64,000 nt of DNA, taken from the NCBI GenBank assembly GCA_038245905.1, contig JBBRRY010000005.1, positions 32,001-96,000 of the forward strand, given 5' to 3'. A program made the position numbers and the translations under genes. The notes under the pieces were generated by a model. That model did not search any database. It was not told the origin of the DNA and saw only the letters and a list, made by a program, of their open reading frames with translations. Each line of letters opens with the position of its first letter. The first letter of the stretch is position 1. The DNA is from Thermoanaerobaculia bacterium. GTDB lineage: Bacteria; Acidobacteriota; Thermoanaerobaculia; UBA5066. Positions 25-10,405 of this stretch are shown here, piece after piece.

Positions 25-609
25 TCACCTCGAAGTCGTCGTCCCCATGCCCGAAGTCGCCGGGCTCCCGGAGACGGATTGGGGCCTCCCGATCGCACCG
101 GGCTTCGGACCGACTGGACCTGGACCCTTCTGCTCCGGGTACTTCAGCTCGATCGAGGCGAAGTTGAGCGTCAGACTCTCCGTCTGCACGGCGGCACCGC
201 GTCCGCCTCCAGCCATGTTGAACGACGAGACCATCACGTTCTTCAGCTCGTACTTCAGATAAGCCGGGGACCCGGAGCCTGTCTTCCGCATCTCGATCAC
301 GACCGAGGGAAAGTGCTTTCCGGTTGCCTTCTGGAGAAGAGGCGACGCCTTATCGACGGTTTTCGTAAAGGTAAAGGTTCCGGGCCCGCTCTTCGCCAGA
401 CCGGCTGGAGCAGCGCCTGCCGGCGGCGCGGGAGCTGGTGAGGAAAAGTTGTAGGACTGCAACTCGATCCAGCCCTGGTGCTGGGGGTCCATGCTCTCCC
501 CCTTGATGCTGTCGAACCACATGAAGGCGTCGACGGCCGCGTGCGCGACGGGCGCGGACATCAGCCCGGCGGCCAGGAGGCAGAGGGCGAAGACAAACGA
601 GCGTTTCAT
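25..609 (-). CDS. hcp: Hcp-family (T6SS tube-fold) protein with N-terminal Sec signal peptide
   Basis: Signal peptide MKRSFVFALCLLAAGLMSAPVAHA, then Hcp motifs AVDAFMWFDSIKGES..H.GWIEL.SY, DKASPLL, YLKYELKNVMVSS, TESLTLNFASIELKY; SD GGGAGG upstream. Confidence 0.85.
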   Translation of the reverse strand: MKRSFVFALCLLAAGLMSAPVAHAAVDAFMWFDSIKGESMDPQHQGWIELQSYNFSSPAPAPPAGAAPAGLAKSGPGTFTFTKTVDKASPLLQKATGKHFPSVVIEMRKTGSGSPAYLKYELKNVMVSSFNMAGGGRGAAVQTESLTLNFASIELKYPEQKGPGPVGPKPGAIGRPQSVSGSPATSGMGTTTSR

Positions 610-633
610 AGGATCCTCCCAATTCGTACGGAG

Positions 634-772
634 AATCTAGGCCGAAGTCGGACCGCCGCAAGGCAAATCTCTGGCCCCGGCACGAAAGCCCGTGGTCCCT
701 GCGCGCCATGGGGCCGTTTGACCCTCTCCGGACCGGCCCCCGATAATCGCCGTCCGCGCCGCGTTCCCGCGG
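634..772. repeat. Copy 1 of duplicated hcp promoter plus pdhA-promoter block (partner 1824-2012)
   Basis: Blocks AATCTAGGCCGAAGT, CTGGCCCCGG, GTGGTCCCTGCGCGCC, CGTTTGACCCTC and CCCCGATAATCGC occur in the same order in both copies. Confidence 0.9.
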
Positions 773-839
773 GGAACACGGCCATCACCCCGACGAGAGT
801 CGTGAGGGCGAGAAGTCGGCGAGAAGCGTTCTTGTCCAC
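773..839 (-). pseudogene. Probable 5' remnant of a secreted-protein gene cut at the duplication junction
   Basis: GGAGG SD and GTG right after the hcp2 stop; MDKNASRRLLALTTLVGVMAVFPAG looks like a signal peptide, then the frame runs into duplicated promoter DNA. Confidence 0.5.
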
Positions 840-848
840 GAGTCCTCC

Positions 849-1766
849 CTATTTCCGAAACGCCGGCGCTACTACCATCGTCGACTTCGCGGCGACGCTC
901 GTCGTCGCGTGGCCCATACAGGCGTGGTCTGAGGACTTCGGCGGCGTCTTCTGCATCGCCCACGGGTCCGCGAGACCGTATGCCTTGACCGTGAACGTGC
1001 CGCCTTTCATGTACGCGTGCATCGGCGCGGGCTGGGATTTCCCGCTCACGATCGGGTACTCGACAACCGGCGAACCGTCGCCGAAATCGATTCGCGAACG
1101 CTGGCAATCCCCCGTCGCTTCGACCGTGAACGTGACGCTCGCGCCGACGGACAAGGACGCGACGCTCGACGTGACCTTCGTGACCGTCGGCGGAGCCTTC
1201 ACGGCGCCGAAAGCCACTGCGGGCGCTCCCGCGCCGGTTGGGGCGGAGTATCCATCGCCCTTCGTGTGTCCAACGTCCCACCTTCCGGGCTTCGGCGTCC
1301 CTTGCGGGGACACTGGCTCCGGGTAGTGGGTCTCGATCGAGGAGAAGTTCAGCGAGAACGACTCGGTGCCGCCGCCACCACCCACCTGGTACGACGAGAC
1401 CATCACGTTCTTTAGCTCGTACCGAAGGCTGCCGCCGGCCGTCGAGCCCTGGACCTCGAGCGTCGCCGAGGGAAATAGAGTTCCGTTCGCGGCGGCTTTC
1501 TGCAGGGCGGGCGAGGCCTTATCGCCCTTCTTCGAGAGCCTGAGGCTGCTCGGGCCGGCGGTTGCCACGCCCGTGCGGCCAGGAACGGAGGGCGGCGCCG
1601 ATTGCCAGCTGAAAGACTCGACTTCGATCCAGCCCTGGTGCGGGGCGACGGTCACCTCGCCGGCCACGCCATCGATCTTCATGTAGATGGGGCCGCCGAG
1701 CGCCGGTGCCGCGAGCCCGAGGGCGGCAGCGAGGACGACTGCGGACAGGGCGATGGATCGCTTCAT
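849..1766 (-). CDS. hcp: Hcp-family protein with Sec signal peptide and C-terminal PKD/Ig-like domain
   Basis: Signal MKRSIALSAVVLAAALGLAAPALG; IYMKIDGVAGE, HQGWIEVESFSW, DKASPALQK, YELKNVMVSSYQ, TESFSLNFSSIE, WDV; C-terminal SVTFTV..IDFGDGS..HAY..GTFTVK (PKD-like). Confidence 0.85.
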   Translation of the reverse strand: MKRSIALSAVVLAAALGLAAPALGGPIYMKIDGVAGEVTVAPHQGWIEVESFSWQSAPPSVPGRTGVATAGPSSLRLSKKGDKASPALQKAAANGTLFPSATLEVQGSTAGGSLRYELKNVMVSSYQVGGGGGTESFSLNFSSIETHYPEPVSPQGTPKPGRWDVGHTKGDGYSAPTGAGAPAVAFGAVKAPPTVTKVTSSVASLSVGASVTFTVEATGDCQRSRIDFGDGSPVVEYPIVSGKSQPAPMHAYMKGGTFTVKAYGLADPWAMQKTPPKSSDHACMGHATTSVAAKSTMVVAPAFRK

Positions 1767-1823: not shown

Positions 1824-2012
1824 AATCTAGGCCGAAGTGCGCTTTTCGCAACTCGAATCGCTGGCCCCGGAGCGAAAACGGGTGGTCCCTGCGCGCCGCC
1901 CGGGACGTTTCGTGACCTCGAACACTGCAGGAGTAGCGTTCGCGAAGTAATGCCGCGTTTGACCCTCCCTGAAGCGGCCCCGATAATCGCGGTCCGCGTC
2001 GCGCACCCGCGG
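1824..2012. promoter_or_regulatory. Divergent promoter region: hcp2 promoter (minus; TTGCGA-N16-TAGATT plus 21-bp-period direct repeats) and pdhA sigma70 promoter (plus; TTGACC 1959-1964, N17, GATAAT 1982-1987)
   Basis: Consensus-like hexamers with plausible spacing, conserved in the copy at 634-772. Confidence 0.65.
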
Positions 2013-2024
2013 CGTACCCACGAC

Positions 2025-3041
2025 ATGACGACGTCCCTCTCCCACGAACGCCAGAAGGACCTTTACCGGACAATGCTGCTGAACCGGCTGCTCGAGGAGC
2101 GTCTGGTCAACCTCTATCGCCAGGGCAAGGTCGTGGGGGGGCTCTACCGCTCGCTCGGGCAGGAGGCGACGTCGGTCGCGACCGCCTTCGCGCTCGACGA
2201 GGGCGACATCCTGGCGCCTCTCATTCGAAACCTCGGCTCCGTTCTGGCCCGGGGAATCCCGGCGCGCGACATCCTCACGCAGTACATGGCGCGCGCGACC
2301 GCGCCCTCTGGCGGCAAGGACGCGAACCTCCATTTTTCGGTCCCGGGTAGAGGCGTCTATTCGCCGATCGCGATGCTCGGCACGCTCGTGCCCGTCGTTT
2401 CCGGAATGCTCCTCGCCGACCGCATGCAGGGAAAAAGCACCGTGGGCATCACGTATCTCGGGGACGGGGGCACGTCCGTCGGCGCCTTCCACGAAGGCAT
2501 CAACTTCGCCGCCGTTCAGAAGCTTCCGCTCGTCCTCGTCGTCGAGTCCAACGGATGGGCGTATTCGACGCCCACCGAACAGCAGTGCGTCGCGCGGACG
2601 CTCGCAGACAAGGCCGTCGGCTACGGGATTCCCGGCGTGGTCGTGGACGGCAACGACGCGCTGATGGTGTACGAGGTCGCCCGGGCAGCCGTCGACCGCG
2701 CGCGCGCCGGCGGCGGGCCGACGCTCCTGGAGTGCAAGACCTACCGCATGAAGGGACACGCCGAGCACGACGCGCAAGCGTACGTCGATCCTAAAGAGCT
2801 TGCCGCGTGGCGGACCCGCGACCCGCTCGCTCTCCTCGAATCCGCGCTCGAGACGTCGGGAGCGATGCCGGCCGCGGTGCGCCGCCAAGTTCACGATGAC
2901 GTCGAGAGTCAGCTCCACGCGGACGTCGCGTTCGCCGAAGCCTCGCCCTTCCCGGATCCTTCCCTCGCGTTTCGCGGCGTCTACGCCGACGAGGGCATTC
3001 TCGAACGCGGGCGCGCCGGCGTGTTCACGGGGGGCTCCTGA
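2025..3041 (+). CDS. pdhA: 2-oxoacid (pyruvate/branched-chain) dehydrogenase E1 alpha subunit
   Basis: GQEA, TPP motif GDGG..N.WAYSTP, VDGND, TYRMKGHAEHD; start taken as ATG 2025. Confidence 0.9.
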   Translation: MTTSLSHERQKDLYRTMLLNRLLEERLVNLYRQGKVVGGLYRSLGQEATSVATAFALDEGDILAPLIRNLGSVLARGIPARDILTQYMARATAPSGGKDANLHFSVPGRGVYSPIAMLGTLVPVVSGMLLADRMQGKSTVGITYLGDGGTSVGAFHEGINFAAVQKLPLVLVVESNGWAYSTPTEQQCVARTLADKAVGYGIPGVVVDGNDALMVYEVARAAVDRARAGGGPTLLECKTYRMKGHAEHDAQAYVDPKELAAWRTRDPLALLESALETSGAMPAAVRRQVHDDVESQLHADVAFAEASPFPDPSLAFRGVYADEGILERGRAGVFTGGS

Positions 3042-5685: not shown

Positions 5686-8600
5686 TCAGCGCCTCACCCA
5701 AACGGGCGACGACCACGCCTGCTCGCCGTCGGCCTGGGTGACGCGCACGTACCAGCTCGTCTCCCCCGACGCGTCCGGGGAATCCTGCACGGCGAAGGAA
5801 ACGCGCCGCGTATCCGCCGCGGGGAGCCACGTGACCCCCTGCGGGTCTTTCGGGTCGTAGAGGACGTACGCGCCATCCGGTGCGCCCGGCGTCTGGCGCA
5901 TCCGGACCGCCGCAAATGTGTCCCGGAGGTTCCGGACGATCTCGACGCGGTCGATCGCGGCGGTGCCCTCCACGCGGACCGCGAACGTGAGCGGCCCGTT
6001 CGATTTCAGAATCGAGCCCATCGGAGCGCCGTCCGCCGTGAACTCGAGGACGATCCGCGCGCCCGTCGTCGCGTAGTTCCGGCGGTTCCGGATCGCCTCG
6101 AAGATCGAGGCGCGGTCGAGCGTCTCGGCGAGGACGGCCGTGAGGCCGCCCTCCCCCGGCGAGAGATGATGCGTGTCGCTCGCCCCCATGGCGCCAACGT
6201 GGCGGCCGAGGCGAAGGGCGTCCTGGTACTGGTGGCCCGGCACCTGCCGCCGGCCCTCGCGCGGGTTGCCGTAGAACTCGTACCGCCCGTGCCATGAGGC
6301 GATCTCGAAGTTCGGCTCGAGGGCCTCGTCGTGCGGCGCGGCCGGGTTCCACCTGCCCCAGAGGGCGTGCCCCGTGTGGTGCGGTGACATCACGGCGTCG
6401 TGCTCTTTCGCGTGGCGGTAGAGCTTCTCGATCGTGTCGCTGTCCGGATCCGACGAGCGCAGCGTGCGGTCCGGCCCGTCGTCCTTGTAGAGAAGGACGC
6501 GGTGGCCGAACGCGGACCCCGCCGTCCACTCCCATCCCGAGAGGCTGACGAAGCGGCCGGGCGCGTCGAAGGCGGCCGCCGTCGCGCGGAGCTCGGCAAA
6601 CTCCGACGGCTGGAGGAGTCCCATCTCGGAGTGGTCGCTCACGACCGCGAAGTCGAGACCGAGGCGATCGCGTGAGAGCCAGAGAAGCTGATCGGGGAGA
6701 CCGGTCTTCGCGTCGGAAAGCACGCTATGGCTGTGCGGGTCGCCGAAGTAGACGTGCCAGCGGCCGCCTCCCGCCGTCGCCGTCCGCGGCTCCGGCCCCG
6801 CGGTGCGCGGCTCGAGGTCGGGCAGCGCGTCGAAGTGGTCGGGCGGCGCCGCCGCGATCTCCCCCGGCGTCCAGCCGTCTCGGGAGGCCGTGAGCCGCCC
6901 GAGGAAGACGACGTTGCGGCTCGAGTGCGTGTTGTAGGCGTCGACGTCGCCGCCCTCCACCTTTTCGCCCGGCTTCGGCAGCGCTTGCCCCTCCCACGCA
7001 AGCGCGAGGGACCCGTCGGGCGCAAGAGCCGCCGCGGGAAACTCGTCGCGGCCGGGCGAGAACGTCGTGAGGTGCAGCTCCGGCGACCAGCGTTGTCCGT
7101 CGTGGACGCGCGCCCAGAGGTCGAAATTGTGCGCGCCCGTCGCGTCCGTCCTCCAGACGATCCACGCGCGCCCCGCACCGTCGAGAAAGACGGATGGATA
7201 GTTCTGCGTCTGCTTCCAGTGCCAGTAGGGCTCCTCCGTGTCACGGACCGACTTGTCCACCATGCCGAAGCTGACCTGGCCCGGCAAGGCGGAGGGCGCG
7301 ACGCCGACCGGCGCCGCGAACACGCCGTCCTTGTACGTGCGGACGAAGGCGTCCCCGGAGTGCCGGTCGGCGCGGAAGAGGTCCGCCGAGTGGCCGCGCA
7401 TCGAGTTCCACGCAATCCAGAGCGTCCCGTCCTTCGCGCAGGCGAGGGATGGCGAGTCGTCGATCGCGGCGTCCGACGTCACCGGGACGGGCGCCTCGAG
7501 ACGGGGCGCCGCGCCTCCAGAAAGGCGCGCCCGCGCGACAAAGACGTCAAGGTTGCCGGTCCGCGTCGAGTCCCACGCGAGCCACATGCCGCCGTCCGGC
7601 GGAGCCGCGAGGGCAGGCCGCCGGTCAGTCCCGTCGCTCGCGATCCGCATGGGTGCGCTCCAGCCCGAGTCGCGCGCCGCGACGAGCGAGATCCCGAAGC
7701 CACCCCTCTTGAGGAACTCCCACGCGACCCAAAGTCGGCCTGTCGCATCCAGAGCCACTGAGGGATGCAAAGCGTCTTCCCCCTTCAAAGAAATCCTGTT
7801 CTCCGGCCCCCACCCGTCGCCGCCCCGCGCGCGCGAATAGACCGCCCAGCCGCCCTTTCTCTTGCCGTGCCAGAAGACCCGGATGCGTTTCTTCCCGTCG
7901 AGGACGAGCTTCGCGCCGGACTCCAGGCCCTCGCCGGCGTCGAGACGCTCCTCCTCCGCCCACGCGCTCCCTTTCCGACGGCGGACGACGACGCGGTCGT
8001 TTCCGCCGTCCGTAGACGTGTACGCGCACCAGAGGTCGCCCGCGGCGTCGAACGCGATGGACGGGTACTTGTCGAAACGCCCGGGCTTCGAGAGGGTCGC
8101 GACGCCGTCGAGAGCCGAGGGCGCCGTGGGTATTGGGACGAAGCGCCCGCCCGCTGGTGGCTCGACTCGTCCCGCTTCTCGCAGGAATTCCGCCACGACG
8201 TCCGAGAGGAGGACGCCACCGTCCGCGACCCCTGCCGCTTTCAGGAACGTCTGGTAGAGGTCGCCCCCCTGCGCGATGAAGCTGTTCGTCGCGACGCGGT
8301 AGGTTCGCGCGTCGTCGAGCGGCCGGCCGCCGATCCCCACCGAAAGAAGGCGCGCTCCCGGCGGATGCCCGAGGTCGTACGTGCCGGCCAGGCCCGAAAC
8401 CTGGATGAGACCCCGCTCGAGCGTAAGGCCCTGCTCGAGAAACTCGCGGATCTGCTTTCCCGTCAGCTCGAGGGTCACGAGGGAGTTCACGAACGGGAGC
8501 GCGTCGATCACGTTCGCGCGCGTGACGGGACCGGCGGGAAGGTCGGCCCGGAGCCCGCCCGCGTTCTCGAACGCGACCTCGGCACCCGATTTCAGGCGCA

Positions 8601-9681
8601 TGACGTCGGCAACGAAGTCCCCCAGCGAAGACTCGGCCCGGTAGTCGCGGACGAGGCGCTTCGTGAGCGTCCCCGCGGGCGCGCCGGCGGCTTTCCGGGC
8701 CTCTTCGCGATAGGGCGCGAAAAGTGCGACGACCGCCGGGTCGGGCGGCAGCTCGTCGGACCGCACCTCGAGGAGCTCGCCGCGGTAATCCGCGACGCGA
8801 CCGTTCCGGAGCTTGAGCTTCAGATACCCGAGGCGCGTCCCGTAGCCGTACGTCTGGACGATGAGCGTCCCCGTCTTCGGGTGGACGTAGGGTTTCTCGA
8901 TCCCGCGGTGAGCGTGGCCACCGACGAACACGTCGATCCCCGGGACGGCGCCCGCGAGCGCGATGTCCTCGGCGAAGTCACGCTGGACCTCGGGGCGCGC
9001 CTCGGCATCCGTCTGCATCGGGCCCGTCTTTCCCTGGTGGGCGAGCACGACGACGAGGTCGACCCTCGGGCGCAGCTCCTTCACGGCCGCGCGGACTTCC
9101 TCGACGGGGTCCGTGAAGTCCAGCGACGTGATGCCGGACGGGAGCGCGACGCTGCGCGCGTCCATTCCGATGATTCCGATGACGCCGACTCTCAGGCCGT
9201 CCCGCTCGAGAATCACCCAGGGCGGTGCGTAGCGCTTCCCCGTCGCCTTCTCGTAGATGTTCGCGCCGAGCACCGGGAACGAGGCTCCCCTCATGAGCGG
9301 CGTGAAGACGGCCGAGCCGTAGTCGAACTCGTGGTTCCCGATCGCCATCGCGTCGACCTTCAAGACGTCCCATAGGCGCATGAGCGCCTCGCCCTTCGTC
9401 AGGAACGAAAACGTCCCCGTGAAGAGGTCGCCCGAGTCGAACAGGAACGTCGTCTTCTCGCGTGCGCGGATCCGGTTGATCAGCGTCGAGAGCTGCGCGG
9501 CGCCGCCGAGCTGAGGCGAGCCCGGACGCCAGTAGGCCGGGATCGGATCGATCGCGGAGTGAAAGTCGTTCGTATAGAGGATCGTGACCTCACGCTCGGC
9601 GGCGGCAGGAGGTGCGGCAAGGGAGGAGGAGGCCAGACCCGCGGCGACGAGGAGGCATGAAGCGGCGCGCAGCGATTTCAT
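5686..9681 (-). CDS. Large secreted multidomain hydrolase: 5'-nucleotidase (UshA-like), beta-propeller-like repeats, PHP/DUF3604-like metallohydrolase
   Basis: Signal peptide; TNDFHS, DSGD, GNHEFDYG, GGHAH, NAGGLRA; repeated PSIA.D..G..W..W units; FGDPHSHS, VSDH, GWEWT, ASDTH. Confidence 0.8.
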   Translation of the reverse strand: MKSLRAASCLLVAAGLASSSLAAPPAAAEREVTILYTNDFHSAIDPIPAYWRPGSPQLGGAAQLSTLINRIRAREKTTFLFDSGDLFTGTFSFLTKGEALMRLWDVLKVDAMAIGNHEFDYGSAVFTPLMRGASFPVLGANIYEKATGKRYAPPWVILERDGLRVGVIGIIGMDARSVALPSGITSLDFTDPVEEVRAAVKELRPRVDLVVVLAHQGKTGPMQTDAEARPEVQRDFAEDIALAGAVPGIDVFVGGHAHRGIEKPYVHPKTGTLIVQTYGYGTRLGYLKLKLRNGRVADYRGELLEVRSDELPPDPAVVALFAPYREEARKAAGAPAGTLTKRLVRDYRAESSLGDFVADVMRLKSGAEVAFENAGGLRADLPAGPVTRANVIDALPFVNSLVTLELTGKQIREFLEQGLTLERGLIQVSGLAGTYDLGHPPGARLLSVGIGGRPLDDARTYRVATNSFIAQGGDLYQTFLKAAGVADGGVLLSDVVAEFLREAGRVEPPAGGRFVPIPTAPSALDGVATLSKPGRFDKYPSIAFDAAGDLWCAYTSTDGGNDRVVVRRRKGSAWAEEERLDAGEGLESGAKLVLDGKKRIRVFWHGKRKGGWAVYSRARGGDGWGPENRISLKGEDALHPSVALDATGRLWVAWEFLKRGGFGISLVAARDSGWSAPMRIASDGTDRRPALAAPPDGGMWLAWDSTRTGNLDVFVARARLSGGAAPRLEAPVPVTSDAAIDDSPSLACAKDGTLWIAWNSMRGHSADLFRADRHSGDAFVRTYKDGVFAAPVGVAPSALPGQVSFGMVDKSVRDTEEPYWHWKQTQNYPSVFLDGAGRAWIVWRTDATGAHNFDLWARVHDGQRWSPELHLTTFSPGRDEFPAAALAPDGSLALAWEGQALPKPGEKVEGGDVDAYNTHSSRNVVFLGRLTASRDGWTPGEIAAAPPDHFDALPDLEPRTAGPEPRTATAGGGRWHVYFGDPHSHSVLSDAKTGLPDQLLWLSRDRLGLDFAVVSDHSEMGLLQPSEFAELRATAAAFDAPGRFVSLSGWEWTAGSAFGHRVLLYKDDGPDRTLRSSDPDSDTIEKLYRHAKEHDAVMSPHHTGHALWGRWNPAAPHDEALEPNFEIASWHGRYEFYGNPREGRRQVPGHQYQDALRLGRHVGAMGASDTHHLSPGEGGLTAVLAETLDRASIFEAIRNRRNYATTGARIVLEFTADGAPMGSILKSNGPLTFAVRVEGTAAIDRVEIVRNLRDTFAAVRMRQTPGAPDGAYVLYDPKDPQGVTWLPAADTRRVSFAVQDSPDASGETSWYVRVTQADGEQAWSSPVWVRR
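7782..7795 (+). repeat. Dispersed motif CCTTCAAAGAAATC (exact copy)
   Basis: gtcttcccCCTTCAAAGAAATCctgttctcc inside the nucleotidase CDS. Confidence 0.85.
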
Positions 9682-9727
9682 GAGTGCGGAGTGTATCGGC
9701 GGGCGCGCCAACGCTGTAACATCAACC

Positions 9728-10405
9728 ATGCCGCCCCGGATCGACATCGTCTCGCTCCTTCCCGAGGGCCGCGTCTCGTGGGACGCGGCCTTCGCGCTTC
9801 AGAAAGAGGCCGAGGCGCGGGTGAAGGCAGGCGGACGCGAGACGCTCTTCCTGCTCGAGCACACCGACGTCATCACGGCGGGCCGCAACGCTGACCTCGG
9901 CGAGCTTCTGGTCTCCGAGGACCTCCTCTTGCAAAGAGGCGTCCAGCTTCGGATCACGGACCGCGGCGGCAAGCTCACATTCCACGGTCCCGGCCAGCTC
10001 GTCGTCTACCCGGTCCTCGACCTCTCGCATGGACTGCGCGACGTGCGGCAATACGTGCACGACCTCGAAGAGGTGCTCATCCGCAGCGCGGCCGACTTCG
10101 GCGTCGCGGCCGCGCGCAGCGCCGCACCGGAGCGATGGGCCTCGGTCTGGGTGGGAAACGACAAGCTCGCGGCGATCGGCGTCCATCTTTCGCGCTGGGT
10201 CACGACGCACGGCGCCGCCCTGAACGTCGCGACGGACCTGGCAAGGTTTTCGCTCTTTATTCCATGCGGGATCGCCGACGGCGGCGTAACGTCTCTTTCA
10301 GGAGAGAACCCGGGGAATACGCCGCCGGCCCTGCACGAGGTCGCAGACTGTTTCGTGAGCCACTTTCTCGAGGTCTTCGAAAGGGAGAAGGGTGACGCGC
10401 CATGA
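9728..10405 (+). CDS. lipB: Lipoyl(octanoyl) transferase
   Basis: LLEHTDVITAGR, TDRGGKLTFHGPGQLVVYP, KLAAIGV, HGAALNV, IPCGI. Confidence 0.95.
   Translation: MPPRIDIVSLLPEGRVSWDAAFALQKEAEARVKAGGRETLFLLEHTDVITAGRNADLGELLVSEDLLLQRGVQLRITDRGGKLTFHGPGQLVVYPVLDLSHGLRDVRQYVHDLEEVLIRSAADFGVAAARSAAPERWASVWVGNDKLAAIGVHLSRWVTTHGAALNVATDLARFSLFIPCGIADGGVTSLSGENPGNTPPALHEVADCFVSHFLEVFEREKGDAP

Follow-up and report, generated by a model that had tools for sequence, protein, structure and literature searches.

Can proteins of the Hcp family be exported by the general secretory (Sec) route and serve a cell that has no type VI secretion system (T6SS)? The question is raised by two genes at the left end of a 64,000-nucleotide stretch of a Thermoanaerobaculia bacterium (Acidobacteriota; assembly GCA_038245905.1, contig JBBRRY010000005.1, positions 32,001–96,000), here called the window and listed as G000:C5:32001-96000. 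Hcp is treated as a T6SS marker; ordinary Hcp is taken to carry no signal peptide and to polymerise only in the cytoplasm, inside the sheath. The two window genes, copy 1 (25–609, minus strand, stop codon 25–27, 194 residues) and copy 2 (849–1766, minus strand, stop codon 849–851, 305 residues), are open reading frames (ORFs) that each encode an Hcp-type protein behind a signal-like segment, and an earlier reading of the sequence alone (the sequence-only reading) had taken them for Hcp proteins repurposed outside the T6SS. The answer reached here, to which a probability of about 0.6 is given as a whole, is that they are Sec-exported Hcp-fold proteins of a genome without a T6SS, that they most likely form Hcp-type rings on which copy 2 would display a PKD-like domain, and that their role is probably structural or adhesive. 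Export and independence from the T6SS, taken jointly, are highly probable.

Fold and export signals of the two proteins

Both window proteins are true members of the Hcp-fold family. In a hidden Markov model search, residues 29–157 of copy 1 and 28–148 of copy 2 matched PF05638 over the full model (1–129 of 129) with 94.7 bits (E = 6.8e-27) and 85.6 bits (E = 4.6e-24), respectively, against a cut-off of 23.5 bits, and the sequence-only reading was thus right to call both genes recognisable Hcp. The two proteins are 46% identical across the Hcp part. A profile of the family matched Pseudomonas aeruginosa Hcp1 (1y12) with E = 4e-40, aligned over only residues 3–145 of the 165-residue chain. The AlphaFold2 model of copy 1 has a mean predicted local distance difference test score (pLDDT) of 81, with values above 90 across most of residues 30–160; it consists of a low-confidence helix (residues 5–16), a confident beta fold (about 28–157) and a disordered tail from residue 161. 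When the model was compared with 48,161 solved chains in VIA-align, nine Hcp structures scored Z 12.7–15.1, with the aligned model range beginning at residue 25 or 26 (25–27 over the wider set of matches); the best were EvpC (3eaa; Z 15.1, root-mean-square deviation 3.1 over 121 residues, model range 25–162) and 3v4h (Z 15.1), followed by phage and injection-system tube proteins at Z 7–10. From the PF05638 match, model, profile and structural alignment, the Hcp fold of copy 1 was placed at residues 25–160 (130–537, minus strand). The tail that follows (residues 161–194; 28–129, minus strand) is rich in Pro, Gly and Ser, has pLDDT values of 48–67 per block and no secondary structure, and agrees with the Pro/Gly tail read from the sequence; in alignment A2 a conserved EQK precedes comparable Pro-rich tails in relatives.

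The model of copy 2 (mean pLDDT 68) contains an Hcp fold at residues 27–148, a linker at 152–191 with pLDDT below 50 and an all-beta domain at 194–294. Foldseek placed Hcp1 and Hcp2 structures on top (E = 1e-8 for 5xhh). On the minus strand, the Hcp fold (residues 25–150) was assigned to 1317–1694, the flexible linker (residues 151–192) to 1191–1316 and the C-terminal domain to 852–1190. A PKD/Ig-like domain with two Cys residues had been proposed for this last part. Direct PKD matches fall just below the cut-offs (PF18911, 21.8 versus 27 bits; PF00801, 21.2 versus 23.5 bits). A PKD-like domain is nevertheless supported: homologues of the C-terminal part have precomputed PF00801 matches, the model resembles a beta sandwich, and all 19 Hcp-PKD proteins of alignment A4 keep C221, C283 and a DFGDG motif. 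Of the 19 homologues found with the C-terminal part, 18 carry the Hcp family and one is a partial record with PKD families only.

Two observations concern this domain. The C-terminus of copy 2 (852–866, minus strand) reads ..FRK, and an RK end, usually after a hydrophobic residue (..AFRK), is found in 11 of the 19 proteins of alignment A4. Braun's lipoprotein ends in ..YRK, its last Lys being linked to peptidoglycan, and by this analogy the RK end is a possible tethering or sorting signal. In the related locus L006, a stand-alone ORF of 151 residues (1872–2327, plus strand) between two Hcp-type genes has a signal-like N-terminus, a PKD-like domain, two Cys residues and VDFGD; an unfused form of the module therefore exists.

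Judged by a heuristic of our own and by inspection, both proteins begin with a Sec-type signal. The N-terminal segment is MKRSFVFALCLLAAGLMSAPVAHA, followed by AVDAF, in copy 1 (residues 1–24; 538–609, minus strand) and MKRSIALSAVVLAAALGLAAPALG, followed by GPIYM, in copy 2 (residues 1–24; 1695–1766, minus strand). Each has Lys or Arg at positions 2–3, a hydrophobic core (13–16 residues in the window signals) and small residues at −3 and −1, in the order of N-terminal, hydrophobic and C-terminal (n/h/c) regions that ends in AXA or AXG; the proposed cuts are AHA|A and ALG|G. A Sec signal on each protein had been read from the sequence, and 24-residue segments of this layout do stand before the fold. 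In alignment A2, position −1 is Ala or Gly in 20 of 20 signal-bearing sequences and position −3 is Ala or Ser in 19 of 20; all 20 keep the n/h/c layout, although their sequences differ. The residue after the proposed cut corresponds to residue 2 of ordinary Hcp (start M-A-V-D-x-F), which supports the earlier claim that the cut AHA|AVDAFM exposes the usual Hcp N-terminus, A25 falling on ordinary residue 2. Orthologues of copy 2 likewise keep the layout with a divergent signal sequence (42% identity to the L006 orthologue in the signal and 71% over the whole protein). Cleavage at these sites is probable; like the cut, the final location of both proteins is inferred.

True starts inside the genes, which the sequence-only reading had named as a way in which it could fail, are unlikely because the first in-frame Met after each ATG (M30 of copy 1, M29 of copy 2) falls within strand 1 of the Hcp fold; GGAGG-type ribosome sites lie 5–7 nt 5′ of both ATG codons of the long frames. 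After the proposed cut, copy 1 has no Cys and copy 2 has exactly two, both invariant in the 19 sequences, a pattern as expected of exported proteins and one that fits an oxidising compartment. Two special routes were considered and rejected. Substrates of signal peptidase II carry a lipobox (L-[AS]-[GA]-C); neither window signal has one at the end of its h-region, the sole Cys (C10 of copy 1, in F-A-L-C) being too N-terminal, and lipoprotein sorting was ruled out. PEP-CTERM sorting was ruled out since there is no C-terminal transmembrane stretch.

Occurrence of signal-bearing Hcp and of the T6SS

Among sequencing runs, one DNA run, possibly the source sample, contained 98% of the sampled words of the sequence, and no RNA run was listed. 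The genome (3.80 Mb in 113 contigs, 96.4% complete) was searched in six frames. PF05638 found only copy 1 and copy 2, and no match at E ≤ 0.1 was obtained anywhere in the assembly for VipB/TssC (PF05943), VipA/TssB (PF05591), TssF (PF05947), TssK (PF05936), Phage_GPD/VgrG (PF05954), gp25/TssE (PF04965) or PAAR (PF05488). The sequence-only reading had noted that the window holds no T6SS genes and that a complete cluster next to it would speak otherwise; the absence extends to the whole assembly, with neither an adjacent nor a distant cluster.

In a sample of 251 genomes of the window's class (the tallies include G175, which was left unclassified), 56 had a PF05638 match and 34 had TssC; every TssC-positive genome was one of the 56. 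Fifty loci (L082–L131) were classified, covering 61 of the 88 listed PF05638 matches; the matches outside them include G100:C20, G048:C2, two in G192:C185 and, from genomes with TssC, several others. A census of signal-bearing Hcp against the T6SS had been proposed at the outset; among the classified loci, signal-like Hcp occurs in 11 genomes, ten of which are without TssC (G000, which contains the window, G014, G054 with two genes, G082, G112, G116, G190, G224, G234 and G246). The eleventh, G172, is TssC-positive, and its four consecutive signal-like Hcp genes lie some 1.18 Mb away from the T6SS cluster. In the TssC-positive genomes examined, the best Hcp is signal-less and lies within about 1–4 kb of TssC. 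The 22 Hcp-positive, TssC-negative genomes divide into ten with signal-like Hcp, five whose Hcp is full-length but has no signal (in G096 and G228 it sits on a short contig; those of G043, G055 and G115 look like true orphans) and seven unclassified (weak fragments in G028, G047 and G064; two domains in one frame in G184; ambiguous or partial matches in G139 and G215; and G175).

The same division recurs outside the class. TssC was found in none of ten genomes with signal-like Hcp (those of L016, L018, L023, L042, L049, L050, L061, L065, L074 and L079) and in all five with ordinary Hcp (L014, L025, L038, L058 and L077), for 15 genomes whose completeness is not given. When one genome per species was scanned, 78 loci were obtained, each with at least one scored Hcp row, and by the heuristic 28 of them bear a signal-like Hcp; by label, which can be wrong for metagenome bins, these belong to Acidobacteriota (6), Pseudomonadota (6), Bacteroidota (5), Verrucomicrobiota (5), Nitrososphaerota (2), Nanobdellota (1) and Planctomycetota (1), with two unclassified. 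A word-index search with copy 1 found 45 proteins, many with a similar N-terminal segment; NCBI and JGI records name some of these relatives 'type VI secretion system tube protein Hcp'. The nearest relatives are from Thermoanaerobaculia. When 1.84 billion representatives were searched with a profile, 22,538 matched, and among the best 150 of these the heuristic called 33 of 35 single-domain and 12 of 24 two-domain proteins signal-like. By these sequence criteria, signal-bearing Hcp is a multi-phylum family that recurs in genomes without TssC. Of the proposal that Hcp has been repurposed outside the T6SS, the export signals and the independence from the T6SS have thus gained support, from the genome and from recurrence across phyla; what it said of assembly and of an adhesin is still inferred.

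Three bins labelled as archaea contain signal-bearing Hcp (L042 and L065, Nitrososphaerota; L053, Nanobdellota). The contigs of L042 and L065 have 32–35% G+C, their genomes measure 1.3–1.4 Mb and lack TssC, and neighbours such as a geranylgeranyl-reductase-like gene fit the Nitrososphaerota label. In L042 a phage tail collar domain protein is encoded about 2 kb upstream.

In a full-text literature search, outside which subscription journals and supplements lay, no paper describing signal-bearing Hcp was found. According to the Methods of PMC8262886, Hcp genes that carry a PEP-CTERM sorting signal were taken out of the data set ahead of tree building, and this remark is the only printed hint of exported Hcp forms that was met with. 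A secretome study (PMC12019908) groups T6SS_HCP-domain with gp19-domain proteins as possible tubular subunits.

The history of the signal was followed in a quick maximum-likelihood tree of 146 Hcp domains (49 signal-like) over 138 columns, a small number, and with many open forks; duplicate loci (L001–L003, L112, L113 and L131) and domains below 60 bits or with incomplete model coverage were omitted. The window copies fall in a clade of ten rows, all signal-like and all from Acidobacteriota, with a Shimodaira–Hasegawa-like approximate likelihood-ratio test (SH-aLRT) value of 98; the Hcp proteins of T6SS-positive congeners, which have no signal, branch apart from it. The sister of copy 2 is its L006 orthologue (SH-aLRT 99), and the nearest neighbour of copy 1 is L004, so the duplication into copies 1 and 2 predates these species. 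The signal label requires 12 changes on the tree, of which the starred branches force at least two; a single origin of the signal is therefore unsupported.

Assembly, function and competing explanations

The preferred account can be put as a sequence of steps. The Sec route would carry both proteins out of the cytoplasm, and signal peptidase I would cut after AHA in copy 1 and after ALG in copy 2, giving N-termini equivalent to residue 2 of ordinary Hcp. The complete Hcp barrel would then build Hcp-type rings in the periplasm or at the cell surface, copy 1 acting as a plain subunit with a disordered Pro/Gly tail and copy 2 holding a disulfide-bonded PKD-like domain outside the ring on a flexible linker of 40 residues, in the manner of phage lambda gpV. 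Rings are a likely arrangement for such chains because the mature proteins keep the complete barrel; for the window proteins themselves the chances are judged to be even, given the retained fold, the recurrent pairing of genes and the existence of six-domain relatives. The PKD-like domain may be an adhesin, and the likely function is that of a structural or adhesive component of the cell envelope or matrix.

Pairing is seen at ten loci with at least two adjacent signal-like Hcp genes (L004, L007 with four, L018, L023, L033, L042, L049, L050, L053 and L079). Eight of these loci (L018, L023, L033, L042, L049, L050, L053 and L079) have a short gene (180–214 residues) and, directly after it, a long one (265–403 residues), the spacing ranging from a 25-nt overlap to a 55-nt gap. 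The C-terminal extensions of the long genes (103–248 residues) have no Pfam match except for TSP3 repeats in one. The window has both kinds of gene in the opposite order. This recurrence is the main reason for the idea of a two-subunit assembly and suggests it, short of proof; rings that mix copy 1 and copy 2 are a tentative extension and on present evidence rather doubtful.

Multi-domain proteins (P0046–P0192) occur among the best 150 of the 22,538 profile matches: 60 proteins of about 900–3650 residues carry six Hcp domains in one chain, and others have two to five or seven. The six-domain proteins look like covalent Hcp hexamers, and their frequency supports, at the level of domain counts, a six-membered ring as the selected unit among close relatives of the profile. 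Several multi-domain proteins open with a basic, Leu-rich '..LE.R.LLA' motif, which we take to be typical of Planctomycete secreted proteins, and others begin directly at strand 1. In a sample of 101 genomes from the class of a Pirellulaceae genome, only single-domain matches, and no six-domain proteins, were found. A wider generalization can be framed, although it is speculative and improbable as it stands: signal-bearing Hcp paralogues would make up undescribed Sec-dependent rings or tubes of the envelope or the extracellular space, built from plain and domain-displaying subunits. No sheath, baseplate or spike would take part in the assembly; four or more bacterial phyla, and perhaps archaea too, would have such structures, and the six-domain chains would be a covalent version of the ring.

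Several points weigh against the preferred account. The signal calls, for the window proteins and for the whole census, come from a hand-made heuristic and the −3/−1 rule. Both proteins score below the NCBIfam TssD cut-off (TIGR03344; 42.3 bits for copy 1 and 23 for copy 2, cut-off 58.9). In alignment A2 the window proteins and their clade lack the segment with which ordinary Hcp ends (GWD..N.K. or SWKVEEGE), and their long loop is Pro/Ala-rich (PAPAPAG) where that of ordinary Hcp is Gly-rich; ring and tube contacts may for these reasons be altered in the clade. G043, G055 and G115 (L116, L119 and L121) have signal-less Hcp genes away from contig ends and no TssC; the products begin with MASNMYIKFE.. 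or MTSSMYIKFE.., one of the three genomes is a single-contig assembly of 6.6 Mb, and the genes look like orphan cytoplasmic Hcp, so that absence of TssC alone does not mark an exported Hcp. In a draft of 113 contigs a missing T6SS cluster is formally conceivable. The ratio of nonsynonymous to synonymous substitution rates (dN/dS; NG86) between copy 2 and its L006 orthologue is 0.49 for the whole gene, 0.26 for the signal, 0.48 for the Hcp part, 0.62 for the linker and 0.53 for the PKD-like domain, the short regions being noisy; selection on copy 2 is purifying yet fairly relaxed. The purifying side, like the shared position of the locus in relatives, speaks for real genes under selection, and it is the relaxed side that counts here. 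Finally, an all-against-all comparison of 434 ORFs from 32 loci, based on greedy ORF calling that is crude in GC-rich DNA, found no family other than Hcp shared across phyla, and since there is no conserved cross-phylum partner gene the genome context gives no clue to function.

Some of these points lend themselves to an explanation in which the proteins are exported but form no rings, the Hcp barrel being reused in a secreted adhesin or matrix protein, as a monomeric module or in some other arrangement. The lost C-terminal segment, the Pro/Ala-rich loop and the scores under the TssD cut-off would all be accommodated, and a dN/dS of 0.49 together with variable locus content fits fast-evolving surface proteins. 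Against this stand the whole barrel, retained at high model confidence, the recurrence of short and long paired genes and the six-domain single chains that are common among the best 150 matches; the explanation is considered unlikely, even as the best of the alternatives. Less probable again is that the segment stays uncleaved and, as a signal anchor, fastens the Hcp fold to the inner membrane on its outer side. Hydrophobic cores of 13–16 residues would allow it, and some distant relatives (such as L013, L030, L059 and L060) do have longer N-terminal hydrophobic segments followed by linkers, but the small residues at −3 and −1 in 19–20 of 20 relatives, exactly where the Hcp fold starts, are what is expected of cleaved signals.

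Exported rings might instead act as a periplasmic decoy or trap for effectors that the T6SS of attackers deliver with Hcp. The grounds are circumstantial: ordinary Hcp binds effectors in its lumen (PMC8262886), the genes occur in genomes without a T6SS, and locus content varies between relatives. As PADLOC gave no match, and the idea leaves the PKD-like domain and the archaeal-labelled members unexplained, it is given very little weight. The least credible explanation, that the genes are leftovers of a lost T6SS, cytoplasmic Hcp with miscalled starts, or partners of a T6SS in the unassembled part, can point to TssC in 5 of 12 sampled genomes of the same genus and to the 113 contigs, but it faces seven machine families without a match at 96.4% completeness, strong ribosome sites at the long starts with the internal Met codons inside strand 1, signal-like segments conserved across the family, an all-signal clade (ten rows, SH-aLRT 98) apart from the ordinary Hcp of the genus, and both kinds of Hcp at separate places in G172.

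Upstream regions and genomic setting

Each gene is preceded by its own copy of a conserved non-coding region, and for this reason the preferred account includes a probable joint switching-on of copies 1 and 2 by one regulator. The regions lie at 634–777 (copy 1; repeat families D1, D3 and D5) and at 1824–2017 (copy 2; delimited by repeat families and alignment, and common to the divergent E1-alpha gene), both read on the minus strand. They have blocks of 74, 40 and 26 nt in common that are 78–85% identical, compared with 46% for the proteins. A dispersed repeat was ruled out, since blastn finds these two copies only in the genome. Read by eye, the minus strand of the copy 1 region contains a −10 element TAGATT (634–639), a −35 element TTGCGG (656–661) and the repeats GGGGCCA (672–678) and GGGACCA (693–699); the corresponding elements of copy 2 are at 1824–1829 (−10), 1846–1851 (−35, TTGCGA), 1862–1868 and 1883–1889 (repeats). 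The arrangement, TTGCG(G/A)-N16-TAGATT with a weak −35 element and direct repeats ahead of it spaced 21 nt start to start, looks like an activator-dependent promoter with a putative response-regulator-type site. The motif GCGCAGGGACCAC is also present upstream of the signal-bearing Hcp locus in the congeners G116 and G014, both of which have GGGACCA once more as the second repeat.

Within one of the shared blocks, a search on the plus strand found a promoter-like site of the form TTGACC-N17/18-GATAAT; two such sites stand against 0.1 expected. The site upstream of copy 2 (1959–1987) faces the E1-alpha gene. Its duplicate upstream of copy 1 (718–747, TTGACC-N18-GATAAT) would be directed, in antisense, at the 3′ end of copy 2; it is perhaps an antisense promoter, or else a remnant of the duplication. 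A search of the whole window against Rfam returned one tRNA only and assigned the conserved upstream blocks to none of the known RNA families.

The flank to the left of the window carries asd, aspartokinase, dapB, dapA, an unassigned ORF, lysA, methylmalonyl-CoA mutase and a TPR protein, and inspection of this side, which the sequence-only reading had suggested, disclosed no T6SS cluster. To the right of the Hcp genes is a 2-oxoacid dehydrogenase operon (E1-alpha, E1-beta and E2); the Hcp genes therefore sit among housekeeping genes. The interval between the dehydrogenase operon and asd is the same locus in relatives, syntenic and variable in content. G014 has, after the conserved upstream region, a secreted protein of 440 residues without a Pfam family and then an Hcp-PKD gene. 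In L006 the order is a 442-residue protein, a divergent signal-bearing Hcp-like ORF, the 151-residue PKD-like ORF, the copy 2 orthologue, asd and aspartokinase. The two copies of the 440–442-residue secreted protein (L131:1619-2938, minus strand; L006:5-1333, plus strand) are 82% identical and both precede the Hcp-PKD gene; they have no Pfam, PADLOC or PHROG match, and no copy was found in G000. A PHROG search matched only the unnamed family phrog_27303, and a Protein Atlas search with copy 2 gave no usable match. Further into the window, after the dehydrogenase operon, an ORF of 1353 residues (5686–9747, minus strand) has a signal-like N-terminus.

These observations bear on how genomes are annotated and on what the tail-tube fold can do. 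Hcp matches alone mis-annotate the presence of a T6SS, the NCBI and JGI labels on relatives being an example, and the fold would have been recruited for a function outside the cytoplasm. If rings or tubes do assemble, they would represent a new kind of envelope or extracellular structure and a simple self-assembling scaffold that can be expressed and is amenable to laboratory study.

The closest known relatives are the T6SS Hcp/TssD proteins, such as P. aeruginosa Hcp1 (1y12) and Edwardsiella tarda EvpC (3eaa), which belong to the same Pfam family and have the same fold. The window proteins differ from them in their Sec-type signal, in a genome without TssB, TssC, TssF, TssK, VgrG, gp25 or PAAR, in the missing last C-terminal segment, in the Pro/Ala-rich loop and in scores below the TssD cut-off. 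Phage lambda gpV (7t4f) is laid out like copy 2: after its tube-fold domain comes a C-terminal Ig-like one, which lies on the outside of the tube. In contrast to the window proteins, gpV is part of the virion and is assembled in the cytoplasm. The resemblance is distant (Foldseek rank 45, E = 7.8e-6; 12% identity, root-mean-square deviation 18 over the whole chain) and is one of analogy, not of membership. Two Hcp paralogues are combined in one hetero-hexameric ring in a Bacteroidales T6SS (PDB 9vnd, PMC13213661; VIA-align Z 10.1 with copy 1). These rings offer a precedent for the recurrent signal-bearing pairs; they are cytoplasmic T6SS parts that load effectors, whereas a mixed ring of the window proteins is conjectural. 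Specialized or 'evolved' Hcp proteins (PMC8262886) join an Hcp domain to a C-terminal extension as copy 2 does, but are signal-less T6SS substrates with toxin domains, where copy 2 has a signal and a PKD-like domain. Measured against these systems, the Hcp family and its fold are already known, and what appears to be new, as far as sequences can tell, is an Hcp that bears a signal in the absence of a T6SS.

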